Assembly: GCF_028641065.1 (NCBI RefSeq)
Contig: NC_073394.1
Span: forward strand, 41,354,001 to 41,418,000
Length of the DNA: 64,000 bases
Reading direction: 5' to 3'
Source of the DNA: Leucoraja erinacea
Taxonomy: Eukaryota
Shown here piece after piece: positions 11,590 to 37,366 of this stretch (its first letter is position 1; each line of letters starts with the position of its first letter). The notes beneath the pieces were generated by a model. It was given only the letters and a program-made list of their open reading frames with translations. It searched no databases and was not told the DNA's origin. Both the position numbers and the translations under genes were made by a program.

Positions 11590-11925
11590 ATTCGTTGGAT
11601 ATGAACATTTTTGCCAGTCCGAAGAACGTATTTTTGAATTCAGAGGTTTTGTTGGAATGTAAATTTACTGGGTTTACAGCACCGCTTGACTTGAGAAATG
11701 TAGGTGTGCTGTGGTATGGACCAGGCCAGGAACAAATCTATGCTTTTGAAACGGGAGAACATAGGCGCAAGAAACCTGGCACAGAAATATCCGACATTGA
11801 ACTATCCAAAGGAGATGCTTCACTTCTGCTTAATAATGTCCAATTGGCCGACGAAGGGAATTATACTTGCGTTGTGTTTGTCACTCCCGAAAAGGCACAA
11901 AAGAGTTCGGAACTGCGAGTTTTAG
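11590..11925 (+). CDS. NCR3LG1: Exon: IgV domain of B7-H6/NCR3LG1-like protein
   Basis: Acceptor tttag|AT and donor G|gtaaaa, phase 1-1, 336 nt. Translation (D)SLDMNIFASPKNVFLNSEVLLECKF..GVLWY..GDASLLLNNVQLADEGNYTCVVFVTPEKAQKSSELRVL has the B-strand C, C-strand W and DxGxYxC. GDASL and VTPxKAQ match human B7-H6 as I recall it (VVVTPLKAQ). The symbol means 'NCR3LG1-like'; orthology is untested. Confidence 0.88.
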
Positions 11926-12003
11926 GTAAAACACCGTCAACATTACCCGGGATGATCTGCTCTGTTATTATTGGATCTTGGTGGTTAAAATGGCTTTCAC
12001 CAA

Positions 12004-12360
12004 TTGGCCTTCATTGGCCTGCGTATTGAATATAGAAGTTTGGAGGTCATGTTGCAGTTATATAAGACGTTGGTGAGGCTGTATTTAGAGTATTGTGTTC
12101 AGTTCTGGGCACCATGCTGTAGGAAAGATGTTGTAAAACTGGAAAGGGTACAGAGAAGATTTACAAGGATGTTGCCAGGATTCGAGGGTCTAGGCTACAG
12201 GGAGAGGTTGAGCAGCCTGGGACTCTATTCTTGCAGCGCAGGAGGATGAGGTGATCTTATGGAGGTGTATAAAATGATGAGAGGAATAGATCGGGTAGAC
12301 ACACAGAGTCTCTTGCCCAGAGCAGGGGGATCGAGGACCAGAGGACATGGGTTTTAAGGT
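12004..12360 (+). mobile_element. CR1 ORF2 C-terminal fragment (intron)
   Basis: LYKTLVR.YLEYCVQFW and LERVQRRFTRM motifs. Confidence 0.85.
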
Positions 12361-13225
12361 GAATTGGCCCTCTGTAAATCACCTCTAGTGTGTCGAGAGT
12401 GGATGAGAAAGAAAGGATAACAGAACTAGTGTGAACGGGTGATTGATGATTGACGTGGACTTAATGGACGTAAGGCCGAATTCAATGCTGATTCTCAAAT
12501 AAAATTGCGAATGCAAAACTGTATAAAGAGTGACCACGTCAAAAGTATTTTAGTGTTCTCATTAATATATCCGACATATACTTAGCTGAATAATGTGGCA
12601 ATCTAAATCTGCACGTCGTCAAAGGTACTAAATTATAGGAAAGGAATGGTCAGCATGGACTCGATGGGCTGAAGGGCCTGTTTCCAAGCAGTATCAATCT
12701 ATTAATCAAAAATCAACGTTAATTGACTTTTGAGGGTAAGGGAAATCTATTTTTATTAGGGCAAGAGTTGAAGGAAGGAAAGTGGTCCATTTTGTATCAC
12801 CCCATCAATAGGTTAATATAGGACATAGGTTTAAAGTGAGCGGGGAGAGAGGAAAGATTTAATAGGAACCAGAGGAGCAACCTTTTCACAGAGGAGGTGG
12901 TGAGTGTATGGAACAAGCTGCCTAACGAGGTAGTTGAGGCAGGTACTATAACAACATTTAAAAGACATTTGTACATGGATAGGAAAGGTTTAGAGAGTTA
13001 TGGTCGAACACGGGCAGGTGGGATTAGTTTCCACGCTGCATGTCTAAAGTCTAAACTAGTATAGATGGGGCACTTTGGTCATTGTGGGCCAATTGGGCTG
13101 AAGGGTCTGCTTCTGTGCTGTATTACAGTGGCCCTTAGAATTAAGAGTCTTATAATGTGAATTAGATATTTCTGGTAATACACTGAATGGCAACTAACCC
13201 GAGGTTGCACTTGTCTTTAATACAG

Positions 13226-13546
13226 CTCAGCCGAAGCTGCATTTATCCACACAACATGTTACCATTGAGACTGGTGCGGAGAAGCTGGTGACATGTGATG
13301 CTACGGGATTTTACCCTGAGGCACATAACATCTACTGGGAAAAAGTATCCAAGGATAAGACTGAGAAACTAAGCCACGATGTCTTCAACACACTTCCAGT
13401 TCGTAATCCGGATAAAACCTTTAATGTCTCCAGTGCAATGAGAATTAAACCAACTCTAGTTGATAATGGCAATGTGTACAAGTGTGTCATGGACCATAAA
13501 TCATATACTGACCCTCTCTCACTCGAGTTGAAACTCACAGTCGAAG
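13226..13546 (+). CDS. NCR3LG1: Exon: IgC1 domain of B7-H6/NCR3LG1-like protein
   Basis: Acceptor tacag|CT and donor G|gtatgt, phase 1-1, 321 nt. AQPKL..VTCDATGFYPEAHNIYWEK..NPDKTFNVSS..YKCVMDHKS resembles B7-H6 C1 (GFYPEAINITWEK, NMDGTFNVTS, YQCVVRHAS). Confidence 0.88.
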
Positions 13547-17955: not shown

Positions 17956-18069
17956 AACCTGTGGAATATTCGTCAACAGGGGCTATTCTTGGAGTTTTAT
18001 TTGCTGGAATTATTCTATGCGCACTAATTGCCTTTGGACTCTATGTTTACTTCGTGAAATACAGACCAG
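17956..18069 (+). CDS. Exon: transmembrane segment of the B7-H6-like protein
   Basis: Acceptor tccag|AA and donor G|gtaata, phase 1-1, 114 nt. EPVEYSSTGAILGVLFAGIILCALIAFGLYVYFVKYRP is a ~26-aa hydrophobic stretch followed by basic residues (type I orientation). Confidence 0.82.
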
Positions 18070-18855: not shown

Positions 18856-19293
18856 TTACTCCAGGGATCACTGGACCCAATGGACATCAAACCATGAAAC
18901 ATCTTGAAGAAAAAAAGACCACTTGGAGGGTTAGTCCATTCCGTCCTCGTGAAATTATAATTTACTTATACCTAAAGAGGAAGGGGGATCAGGTGAGAAA
19001 AACTATTTTAGATTGGGACAGCAGAAAATCTACTGAAAACAGAAATGGAAAGATCAACGGAGAGGGTCACAATGAAGCGAGGATTCTCATAAATTCAAAT
19101 TATGTCAATGCATCTTTTACACCATTGGATCCCAAATATGACACTGATGCAGATGGGATTTCCAGTGTGATGATCAATGTGGAAATATATCCAGATGTTA
19201 ACCAGGATGCAGGGGCTGAATTAACCATTGAAGTTCAACATAAATCACTGAAACAGCCGATATCAAAGACTTTGATACTGGATGTTAAAGGAG
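18856..19293 (+). CDS. Exon: cysteine-less C1-like Ig domain downstream of the TM exon
   Basis: Pyrimidine-rich tract with actag|TT acceptor (an in-frame alternative AG at 18863-18864) and donor G|gtaaag, phase 1-1, 438 nt open. The C1 pattern is recognisable: TWRVSPFRPREI (for CxxxGFxPxxI), PDVNQDAGAELTIEVQHKSL (for YxCxVxHxSL), and ISKTLILDV as the G strand. Confidence 0.78.
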
Positions 19294-19910: not shown

Positions 19911-20160
19911 TTTCAATCAATACTCATTGAAATAAATGCGTGATTATGCGTTCATAGTAACATCTATAATTTGTAACATTGATGTGTTTTATGCAATGAG
20001 AGCATGGAACAGCATAACACAGGAACGGCCCCTTTGGCCCACAATGTCCATGTTGAACATGATGCCAAGATAAACTAATCTCTGCTGCTTGCACGCAATC
20101 CATGTCCCTCCATCCCTGCATATTTATGTGCCTATCTAAAAGCTTCTTAAACACCACCAT

Positions 20161-23100
20161 ATAATAATGGGGGGAGATTTCAATTGTGTTATAGTCCCAT
20201 ACTTAGATAAATCAATAAAGCTAGGGAAGCGTCTTGTTAAAACTAAGACCTGTGAATTTTTAAATAATTATATAAAAAATAATAACATAACTGATGTTTG
20301 GAGAATAGCAAATCCAAGTGGTAGGGAATACTCATTTTATTCATCAGTTCACAAAACTTATTCGCGAATTGACTATTTCTTATTGGACACAAAATTGATC
20401 CCGTATACGAATAAACCATCATATCATAATAGTATTATTTCTGATCACTCACCATTGACTTTTATACTTAAAATTGAGGGAATGCCGAGTATAAAACCTT
20501 TTTGGAGGTTCAATGCACACATATTAAATAACCCGTAGGGTTACGAGTATATAAAAAAACAAACAAAACGTTTTTTCGAAATAAATGACACGCCGGGTAT
20601 TTCTGCACCGCTATTATGGGAAACCTTCAAGGCATATATTCGCGGTGTCATAATCTCTTACCAAAGTTTTCAAAATAAGGAAAATAAAAGAGAACTTCAG
20701 CGGATAGAACAGAAAATAAAATTACTAGAACTGGACAATGCAACTGACCCAACCATAAATAAACATAATAAGATAACTTTATTGAAATATAAAGTCAATA
20801 GAATACTATCGGCTAGAATAATAAGATTATTCCAAATTACAAAACAAGCACACTTCGAATTTGGGGATAAGCCACATAAACTACTTGCGAGGCAACTGAA
20901 GCAACGAGAAAAGGAAAAAACTATTACTAAAATTAAATCGGATAAGGGTGAGTTTCTAACATTGCCTAAGGATATTAATAAGAGGTTTGCCCAATTTTAT
21001 CATCATTTATATACAAATTTTTAAAATAATTTTTTAGATAATTGCAAGCTCCCAAAATTGGATAGTTTAGAACAAGAGCAATTAGGAGCACGGATTACTA
21101 GTGAAGAAATAAAACAAATAATAAACTCACTGAAAAATGGGAAGACCCCAGGACCAGACGGTTTTAGTAATGAATTTTATAAAAGATTTCAGGAGTCAAT
21201 TGTACCAAGATTATTCAATTTATACATGCAGGCTTATACTGAAAATAAACTACCAGAAACCCTAGCAGAAGCAACAATAACGCTTATACCAAAAAAAGAT
21301 AAAGATTTGGATGAACCGGGTTCTTATAGAGCTATTTCACTTCTAAATACGGATCAGAAAATTTTAGCAAAGATTCTAGCTAGAAGGCTAAATAATTATA
21401 TTAACAATTTAATAAATATGGATCAAACGGGATTCATACCCAAAAGACAATCATTTAATAATTTGAGGAGGCTTTTCAATATAATGTACTCTCACAATGA
21501 GGACAATGAAGATATTTCAGTTGTCACGCTGGATGCAGAGAAGGCATTTGATCAAGTAGAATGGCAGTATTTATGCAAGGGACTCCAAAAATTTAATACG
21601 GGAGAGAATTTTATTAGATGGATTAAACTACTTTACGATAGACCTACGGCAAGAATATTAACTAACAATACGCTATCTCCAAAATTTTACTTATCAAGGG
21701 GTAATAGCCAAGGGTGTGCCTTATCACCATTGCTATTTGCCCTTATGATAGAACCGCTGGCCGAATGGATTAGAAATCACCCGAATATTCACGGATATAA
21801 CACCAAGGACTCAAAGAATAAAATTTCATCATATGCCGATGATATCCTTTTATATATTACTAATACACAAACGAGTATACCCACCTTATTAACACTAATT
21901 GAGGAATTCGGCTCTTTTTCAGGATATAGAATAAATTGGAATAAAAGCGAAATTATGTCTTTAAAACCACAGAATTCGAGACACTTACTAAAATTCCCCT
22001 TCAAAATTGCAACAGAAAAATTCCAGTAGCTGGGTATTCAAATTACGAGAAGACACAAATCATTATTTAGTGCCAATTTTATACCACTATTAAATAAACT
22101 GAATGATACGATTAAATTTTGGAAAACGCTTCCGCTCTCATTGATAGGTAGAATTAACGCTATAAAAATGACTTTCTTACCACAATTAATATATTTGTTT
22201 CAAGCGATCCCAATATATATTCCAAAATATTTTTTCAAAAAACTAGATTCCACCATCACTAATTTTATATGGGACTACAGAACACATAGAATTCAACGAA
22301 AGCATTTGTGCAAATCTAAAGAAGTTGGGGGTTTATCATTACCTAACTTTATGTATTACTACTGGGCAGTGCATATTAAGACCATAATGTACTTGCTGGA
22401 TAGTTCCACTCAGCAGTTGGAGTGGATAAGAATGGAGAAAGAGGAGTGCTATCCGCACGATATAGGAACGATCCTGCTCTCACCGATAAAATTGAATAGT
22501 ATAATATATAAGAAGAACCCAATTATTCACAATATAATAAGAATTTGGAAACAAATAAAAGTATCCTTGAAATTAAATAATTTATCAGTACTAACCCCAC
22601 TATTGAACAACCCCGCATTTAAACCTTCTCTCATCGACAACACATATCAACAATGGGATAGACTGGGGATTAGGAAAGTAGGGGATATGTATGAAGTGGG
22701 CAAACTGTTATCATTTCAACAATTAAAATTTAAATTTAAATTGAAGGATAATCAATATTTTAAATATATACAGGTATGTGACTTTATGAAGAAATATACA
22801 CATAGATTTCAAACTATATTTTTAGACCCTTTAGAAGAAGCAATGAATATTAAGGCTGATTCACAAAAATTAATATCATACTTTTATAATAATATATTAA
22901 ATAGAGAATCACCCTCAACAGAAGCACTAAGGGAAGATTGGGAACATGAGCTAATGATAAAGATCTCGAAGGATAGATGGGAAAAGTATTTGATGAATAC
23001 ACATAACTGTTCTATTAATGCAAGACATAATTTAATTCAATTCAAATTATTACATAGACTATATTATTCAAAAACGAGGTTGAATCAATTTTATCCAAAC

Positions 23101-23881
23101 GTCTCTCCCAGATGCGATAAATGTTTGTTTCAAAACGCTAATATAACACATTCATTTGTAGGATGTACAAAGTTGAATACATTTTGGAGTGATATATTTG
23201 ATATATTTACAAAGCTTTTCAAGTCAAGAATAGAACCCAAAATGGAATGGATTATATTTGGAATAATAGGAGAAGATACCAATTTAAATAAAGATCAAAT
23301 GGTTTTTTTTTATTATGGGTTAATAATTGGAAAGAAATTGACACTTAAATTTTGGAAAAATACAACCATACCAACTGTTAAAATGTGGATTAGGAATATG
23401 ATGGACATAGCATGCCTTGAAGAAATGAGACTCCGACTAATAGATAAATATGACCAATTCTTAAGGAGTTGGTCTCCTTTCATCGACTTTTTGGAATCAT
23501 GTGATGCAGCGGTACCATAAAGATTGCTGATTTCAGTTCATGACGCGGATAGATCTACATCTCCGAATACAGATTTGAAAAAATCTCTTTTAAGGGGCCT
23601 TCTCTTCTATTTTTACTTTCCACTTTCTCTCTTTCTTTTTTATTTTTCCATACACACTTCACGTTTTTCTACTCTCCACCATCTATTTTTCCACTTTTTC
23701 ATCTTTCTATTGTTTTCTTTTTCTTGTCTTGCTTACTTCCTTCTCATAACATAAAACTAGAGGTTGTACATAGAATGGATTACGGTATTACATAGTTGGC
23801 ACCTAAAATTAGGTTCCACTGTACTGTTTTGTACTGTATTAACTTCTAATAAAATAAACAAAAAAACCCCCCAAAAAAACC
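20161..23881 (+). mobile_element. 5'-truncated L1-clade LINE (ORF2: C-terminal half of EN, RT, Cys-rich C-terminus)
   Basis: GGDFN, YSRIDY, ISDH, KTPGPDGF, LDAEKAFD, QGCALSPLLF, YADD and RCDKC motifs. In-frame stops at ~20536 and ~22027 and a frameshift near 21020. A-rich tail at 23848-23880 and a 9-bp TSD caccaccat (20152-20160 / 23882-23890). Confidence 0.95.
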
Positions 23882-24398: not shown

Positions 24399-24776
24399 TG
24401 CCACCCAAGGTTTCAAACATCTTCAAACCCTCCTGCATCATTCACAATAAATCTGCATCTTTGATCTGTTCAATCACTGGGTTTAAACCGAGACCTTTAC
24501 GTATCACGTGGCAACGAAAGAGAAAGAACATGGAGGCAGAAGAAATAGTTCGAATGGAGGCGGACAACAGGACAACTATTCACGGTGGTGACGGGGAGAT
24601 GTCCACATATAAACATTACATCAGTGAGATGAAGCATGATGATGAATCCTACAGCATCACTAGTGTACTAGAGTTAGTGCCTGATATACAGCAAGATCAA
24701 GACTCGCTTTACACCTGTAAAGTACATCACAGCGGCACCAGTGACCAGGAGAGAGAAATCAAGTTAATAATTGCAG
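24399..24776 (+). CDS. Exon: second post-TM IgC1 domain (both cysteines present)
   Basis: Long pyrimidine tract with caaag|TG acceptor and donor G|gtatat, phase 1-1, 378 nt. VPPKVSNI..LICSITGFKPRPLRITWQ..SYSITSVLELVPDIQQDQDSLYTCKVHHS is a canonical C1-set motif series. Confidence 0.85.
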
Positions 24777-37287: not shown

Positions 37288-37366
37288 CGCCAATACAGAT
37301 GTTACCACAGGAAGTCCCGATGAGGATAAATCAAGCTACGGATCTGGAAATTCAAAGTGCAGGAAG
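37288..37366 (+). CDS. Candidate short exon of the C-terminal tail
   Basis: Unique sequence with a good acceptor (ttgtgttttattacag|) and donor (AAG|gtaatg). With phase-1 entry it reads APIQMLPQEVPMRINQATDLEIQSAG and exits in phase 2. No homology support. Confidence 0.4.

Follow-up and report, generated by a model that had tools for sequence, protein, structure and literature searches.

The window analysed here, a stretch of 64,000 nucleotides from the skate Leucoraja erinacea, holds a gene whose exons encode a V-set and a C1-set immunoglobulin (Ig) domain, a transmembrane (TM) segment and, behind it, two further Ig domains, D1 and D2 (Table 1). The signal-peptide exon precedes V and falls outside the window, on its upstream side, and the layout of the B7 family is found in full: signal peptide, a V and a C domain, and a single TM. 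The top three PDB sequence matches of the V exon are B7-H6 (E 6.5e-12), with CD276 less than 2 bits behind. Human B7-H6 (NCR3LG1), a ligand of NKp30, has this V-C1-TM ectodomain in common with the skate gene.

The D1 exon comprises 438 nt with ag and gt flanks and is of phase 1-1. Its reading frame opens at 18858, from which the D1 residues W23, L37 and I124 are counted, while the frame from 18856 contains stop codons. Spliced together, the V, C1, TM, D1 and D2 exons yield 528 codons of uninterrupted frame, encoding a single hydrophobic helix. Several readings of the initial annotation stand as they were made: D1 is about 40 residues longer than the C1 exon (146 versus 107 codons), both post-TM exons have the PDxxQD motif and basic runs, sequons of the types NAS, NKS and NRT are present, and D2 has both canonical cysteines.

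Table 1. Features of the gene within the window (positions from the first letter of the window)
Feature	Position	Strand	Basis or remark
V-set Ig exon, extracellular	11590..11925	+	best PDB sequence match B7-H6; on contig X1 record 1
C1-set Ig exon, extracellular, both canonical Cys	13226..13546	+	
Transmembrane exon, 114 nt, basic stop-transfer stretch at its end	17956..18069	+	
D1 exon, first post-TM Ig domain, without Cys	18856..19293	+	reading frame, contig X1 record 1, predicted model, family alignment
B-strand Cys position, here Trp (TGG), W23	18924..18926	+	family alignment
C-strand Trp position, here Leu, L37	18966..18968	+	family alignment
Low-confidence part of the inserted loop, residues 62-82, pLDDT <50	19041..19103	+	predicted model
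Acidic dileucine-type motif EARILI, matching [DE]xxxL[LI]	19074..19091	+	
NAS sequon, not conserved	19107..19115	+	column common to 7/73
F-strand Cys position, here Ile, I124	19227..19229	+	family alignment
D2 exon, second post-TM Ig domain, both Cys and Trp kept	24399..24776	+	
Short non-Ig exon after D2 in one transcript contig	37288..37366	+	3' end from GT donor, not reads

Transcripts, paralogues and family

Transcript data agree with the earlier placement of D1 behind the TM in a spliced message. Record 1 of contig X1, from a run presumed rather than recorded to be RNA, gives the order V, C1, an unlisted gap of 114 nt, D1 and D2, in which the TM-D1 joint is deduced from the gap equalling the TM exon in length and not from a listed joint. 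In RNA run X24, 33 raw reads extend from the start of D2 into the end of D1, a segment identical in the neighbouring paralogue, such that these reads do not separate the two genes. At two diagnostic sites in D2, about 11 of 25 RNA reads carry the letters of the window copy.

No exons for the further domains found in relatives, D3 to D7, turned up in a search of the window, where the gene ends after D2. One contig runs on past D2 into the short non-Ig exon at 37288; reading through the donor of 37288-37366 meets a stop after one further codon, so the gene probably ends soon after D2. Two loose-end consensus sequences behind D2, probably mixtures, matched nothing in the window. The D1-D2 intron contains a LINE (20140-23520) whose endonuclease and reverse transcriptase frames are broken by stops and which lacks a counterpart in the intron of the paralogue, and many other LINE fragments occur throughout the window.

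The window gene duplicates, in tandem, a longer gene located just past the end of the window. Two database models, P0001 and P0002, fuse the V-C1 part of the window gene (11590-13546) to the next paralogue (G000:C18:41423000-41429334) into a V-C1-V-C1-TM protein, which stems either from read-through splicing or from the merging of tandem duplicates in the model. A further V-C1 paralogue, on the minus strand, precedes the window by about 100 kb (G000:C18:41244400-41256616). On the same contig, KCNJ11-like, NUCB-like and RPS13 genes are found 4 to 21 Mb from the window gene, and about 15 kb from the KCNJ11-like gene there is a divergent V-C1-TM-Ig tail paralogue (G000:C18:20184496-20203209). Its D1 keeps both cysteines and the Trp, lacks the dileucine motif, and may show the ancestral state of the domain. 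According to two reports, human NCR3LG1 lies near KCNJ11 and ABCC8 (PMC11846969; PMC7071772). Our tree, with weak deep branches and built without another B7 outgroup, does not single out the skate orthologue of tetrapod NCR3LG1.

Relatives were found in rays, sharks, a chimaera, coelacanth, lungfish, bichirs, amphibians, turtles, gharial, lizards, a snake and marsupials, and their full layout comprises a signal peptide, V, C1, TM and up to seven Ig domains, D1-D7. Records of a frog, lizard, snake, turtle, gharial and marsupial with the same Ig tail bear the name NCR3LG1. Marsupial records keep D1 and D3, and a mouse relative has a short non-Ig tail. A predicted model of a 1099-residue Heptranchias protein renders all seven tail domains as beta structures (mean pLDDT 79.6). 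Tail domains are also repeated in particular lineages (P0039, P0046, P0004 and P0005), with D1 present seven times in a Heterodontus protein, D3-D4 four times in Hypanus and D4 six times in Mobula. From 166 proteins examined, 73 passed a V-C1-TM-D1 filter requiring at least 40 bits for each domain, and 93 were dropped; the 73 rows contain isoforms, close kin and one fragment, and counts over these rows are not of independent events.

Fold and cysteine record of D1

Pfam assigned no family, PF07654 included, to the D1 exon taken alone, while D2 lies above the C1-set cut-off, and the assignment of D1 to the Ig fold draws on its homologues and on a predicted structure. The AlphaFold model, built with 21 sequences, has a mean pLDDT of 83.2, falling below 50 at residues 62-82. 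Foldseek matched it to Ig domains with probability 1.0 and VIA with Z up to 12.4, with only Ig domains among the matches listed in either search; against the C domain of B7-H6, VIA gave Z 11.3 and an rmsd of 2.2 over 97 residues. D1 is, almost certainly, an Ig fold, with a predicted two-sheet beta-sandwich in the Ig strand order, as had been supposed at the outset. Its set is not fixed by structure, the top matches being tied across several Ig sets. By profile, D1 matches the C1 domain of its own gene (E 7.5e-15), and its atlas features fall nearest to C1-set clusters at 0.86, a value to be read as a lead only. D1 departs from canonical C1-set domains in lacking the B/F cysteine pair (W23, I124) and the C-strand Trp (L37), substitutions that alignment to the family profile confirms. 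Among the domains, D1 is closest to D2 (profile score 133, the others scoring 27-81), which supports the proposal of an old tandem duplication.

As previously remarked, the frame from 18858 has no cysteine at all. This total absence is incidental, since homologous D1 domains have on average 3.19 non-canonical cysteines, with one in the paralogous skate exon; the meaningful feature is the loss of the canonical pair. The pair is retained in only two of 73 D1 domains, and its loss is conserved among orthologues in keeping with the original expectation, as against 70/73 in V, 73/73 in C1, 37/40 in D2 and 46/47 in D3. Further along the tail it is found in 0/39 of D4, 4/29 of D5, 0/26 of D6 and 8/26 of D7.

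The two cysteines of D1 have different histories: the F-strand Cys is missing in 71 of the 73 rows, and the B-strand Cys is kept in 38. Reading a V+C1 tree by eye (44 hand-chosen rows, weak deep branches) gives about eight separate losses of the B-strand Cys, one of them in batoids. By these sequence counts the loss is stepwise, the F-strand Cys apparently going early and the B-strand Cys later and repeatedly, and the initial idea of a paired replacement is not borne out. Nor does adaptation to the reducing cytosol stand as its cause, release from selection in that compartment explaining the loss equally well.

What replaced the B-strand Cys is narrowly restricted. Where it is gone, the position is occupied by Trp (22), Phe (9), Tyr (3) or Val (1), an aromatic residue in 34 of 35 rows, and Arg, Ser and Gly, which are likewise one base away from Cys, never occur. 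This bulky-only replacement argues that the predicted core of D1 has been under continued selection. The C-strand Trp persists in 6/73 homologues, all six of which keep the B-strand Cys, and none of the 34 domains with an aromatic B position has it, an exclusion that hints at compensation. An alternative disulfide between strands B and E was considered and rejected: an E-strand Cys is present in 48/73 rows, but 19 of these have no B-strand Cys, the association is weak (Fisher p 0.054), and D1 of the window has neither residue.

Membrane side and the loop motif

The tail very probably lies on the cytosolic side of the membrane, as the initial annotation had proposed. The gene has a single TM, and 63 of the 73 rows have a higher net charge C-terminal to the TM than N-terminal to it, with the reverse in 4. 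Non-canonical cysteines average 0.1 per domain in V and 0.99 in C1, and 1.2-3.2 behind the TM. The lack of sequon conservation that the initial annotation proposed as a check holds for the NAS of D1, the column of which is common to 7/73 rows and reads DAS in the nearest skate relatives, but not for D2, in which one sequon column recurs in 18/40. D1 as a whole holds 75 sequons where 63.2 would be expected, and no column exceeded 6/73 in that analysis; the count in D2 was 42 against 28.4 in shuffles. The observed/expected ratios, 1.19 for D1, 1.48 for D2, 1.65 for V and 1.59 for C1, make sequon depletion only suggestive as a test of topology; that of D2 resembles those of the extracellular domains, which speaks against a cytosolic side. 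In sharks, an acidic linker before D7 (alignment columns ~1211-1216) carries the tyrosine motifs YSNI, YENI, YEIQ and YCNI, which resemble SH2-binding sites and hint again at a cytosolic tail.

The inserted loop of D1, earlier described as a polar segment, is indeed an insertion; it is not mere polar filler and carries a conserved motif of the dileucine type. EARILI was first spotted by eye, and the loop limits were set afterwards. The pattern [DE]xxxL[LI] occurs in 27 of 73 D1 loops, compared with an average of 3.6 and a maximum of 11 in 1000 shuffles; with LM allowed, the figures are 38/73, 4.4 and 12, all from shuffles uncorrected for kinship among the 73 rows. Over whole D1 domains the motif is present in 40/73 (200 shuffles: average 16.4, maximum 27), and D1 is the only domain tested whole to exceed every shuffle. 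An L[LIM] pair occurs in 49 loops, of which 69% have an acidic residue at position -4; the background is 17%, and no other offset exceeds 37%. The three middle residues are free to vary, as are the flanks.

The motif is found in the chimaera, sharks, rays, coelacanth, a newt, Xenopus, lizards, a snake, turtles and the gharial, with many batoids and a marsupial having the LM form, and is missing from 35/73 loops, including bichir, lungfish and caecilian rows. Some 75 residues separate it from the TM, and it falls in a segment with pLDDT below 50 in two models (D1 of the window and the Heptranchias protein). Motifs of the form [DE]xxxL[LI] are described as signals by which AP adaptors recognise cytosolic tails (PMC2173715; PMC3901399). 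As judged by its sequence, the loop motif supports a cytosolic location of D1 and suggests adaptor-driven sorting.

Interpretation and alternatives

The explanation we favour, and regard as reasonably probable, is that D1 is a predicted Ig domain without canonical cysteines, spliced behind the TM and likely cytosolic, which likely acts as a scaffold for an adaptor-directed dileucine loop. The ectodomain would engage a receptor of the NKp30 type, by homology, and D1 would likely fold without a disulfide just under the membrane, where bulky aromatic residues at the B position may have kept the core packed as the cysteines were lost step by step. The putatively flexible loop could then present its motif to AP-1, AP-2 or AP-3, and the ligand would be moved off the surface, being internalised or routed to endosomes and lysosomes. 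Adaptor binding and sorting through the D1 loop, taken by themselves, seem to us quite probable.

The leucine pair of the loop could also pack on the domain, which speaks against this explanation and leads to an alternative that we consider unlikely: D1 is a cytosolic spacer or protein-binding module whose leucine pair is structural or binds a partner other than AP. The distance of the motif from the TM and its absence from 35 loops fit such a module, as do some relatives in which D1 recurs as many as seven times but has no such motif, and the model of D1, made from 21 sequences, may miss a packed segment. What counts against it is the enrichment of the acid exactly at -4, with middle residues and flanks left free, together with the low confidence of the loop segment in both models. 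A placement of the post-TM domains in the lumen or outside the cell, with D1 a disulfide-less extracellular Ig domain, is very improbable. The cysteine pairs retained in D2 and D3 are the main point in its favour and against the cytosolic side, joined by the recurrent D2 sequon column. The cysteine argument is weakened since unpaired canonical cysteines are equally conserved (D4 38/39, D6 26/26), such that retention of a cysteine needs no disulfide. Against this placement stand also the signal-peptide exon before V, a later hydrophobic window behind the TM in only 2/73 rows, and the type I orientation of human B7-H6 given in PMC2715080.

That the domain is functional in the family while the window copy is a truncated duplicate under relaxed selection, making its lack of cysteines meaningless, appears improbable but draws on real observations. 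The window gene is without D3-D7. Of the changes that separate its D1 from that of the neighbouring paralogue, 22 are non-synonymous and 2 synonymous (Fisher p 0.13), such that the dN/dS below 1 expected by the initial annotation is not found and there is no purifying signal. Between the two adjacent paralogues dN/dS is 1.23 for V and 0.84 for C1, with V exons differing by 17 residues and C1 by 3, as expected if V were a diversifying receptor-binding domain. Contrary to decay, the frame and splice sites are intact, the motif is kept, RNA reads carry the letters of the window copy, and short tails are common in the family. Several of the D1 differences are shared with Rhinoraja and are thus ancestral rather than signs of decay.

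Returning to the sorting explanation, a functional likeness is offered by HIV-1 Nef, which, according to PMC3901399, presents ExxxLL on a long central loop of a folded, membrane-near domain, much as D1 may do. The folds are unrelated and the likeness is an analogy only: binding has been demonstrated for Nef, while D1 is known from sequence and model. The Ig fold of D1 is common to the C1-set constant domains of MHC, beta-2-microglobulin and Ig, from which it differs by the missing B-F disulfide and C-strand Trp, an extra strand and the long loop. C1-set domains are known as disulfide-bonded extracellular modules of adaptive immunity. Ig folds of the I-set that require no disulfide exist in the cytosol in titin and obscurin, soluble proteins of muscle, whereas D1 is C1-derived and forms part of the tail of an immune ligand of type I. 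An intracellular Ig domain is also reported for an echinoderm NLR (PMC13133943).

The post-TM Ig tail is a real and ancient feature, and the dileucine motif in the D1 loop is the element that is new here. A literature search over titles and the openings of abstracts, with a scope that did not take in Flajnik 2012 or Ohta and Flajnik 2015, returned no Ig tail of B7-H6. In human B7-H6 the intracytoplasmic domain is described as homologous to Gag polyprotein (PMC2715080), in place of which the skate has Ig domains. Tentatively, and with somewhat less than an even chance, we propose that the ancestral B7-H6 of jawed vertebrates had a cytosolic chain of C1-derived Ig domains, with a disulfide-less D1 and a Nef-like dileucine loop as a built-in switch keeping a killer-cell ligand off the surface until released, and that this tail was kept in marsupials and replaced in the placental line, in human by the Gag-like tail.

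A conserved cytosolic array with a record of cysteine loss for each domain amounts to a natural experiment on disulfide-free Ig folding, which is useful for the design of intracellular antibodies. The loop motif offers a testable idea for the control of B7-H6 surface display outside placental mammals and bears on which function the human Gag-like tail replaced. In another group of proteins, from bichirs and a toad or toads (P0059, P0098 and similar ones), several C1-like domains likewise seem to follow a TM.
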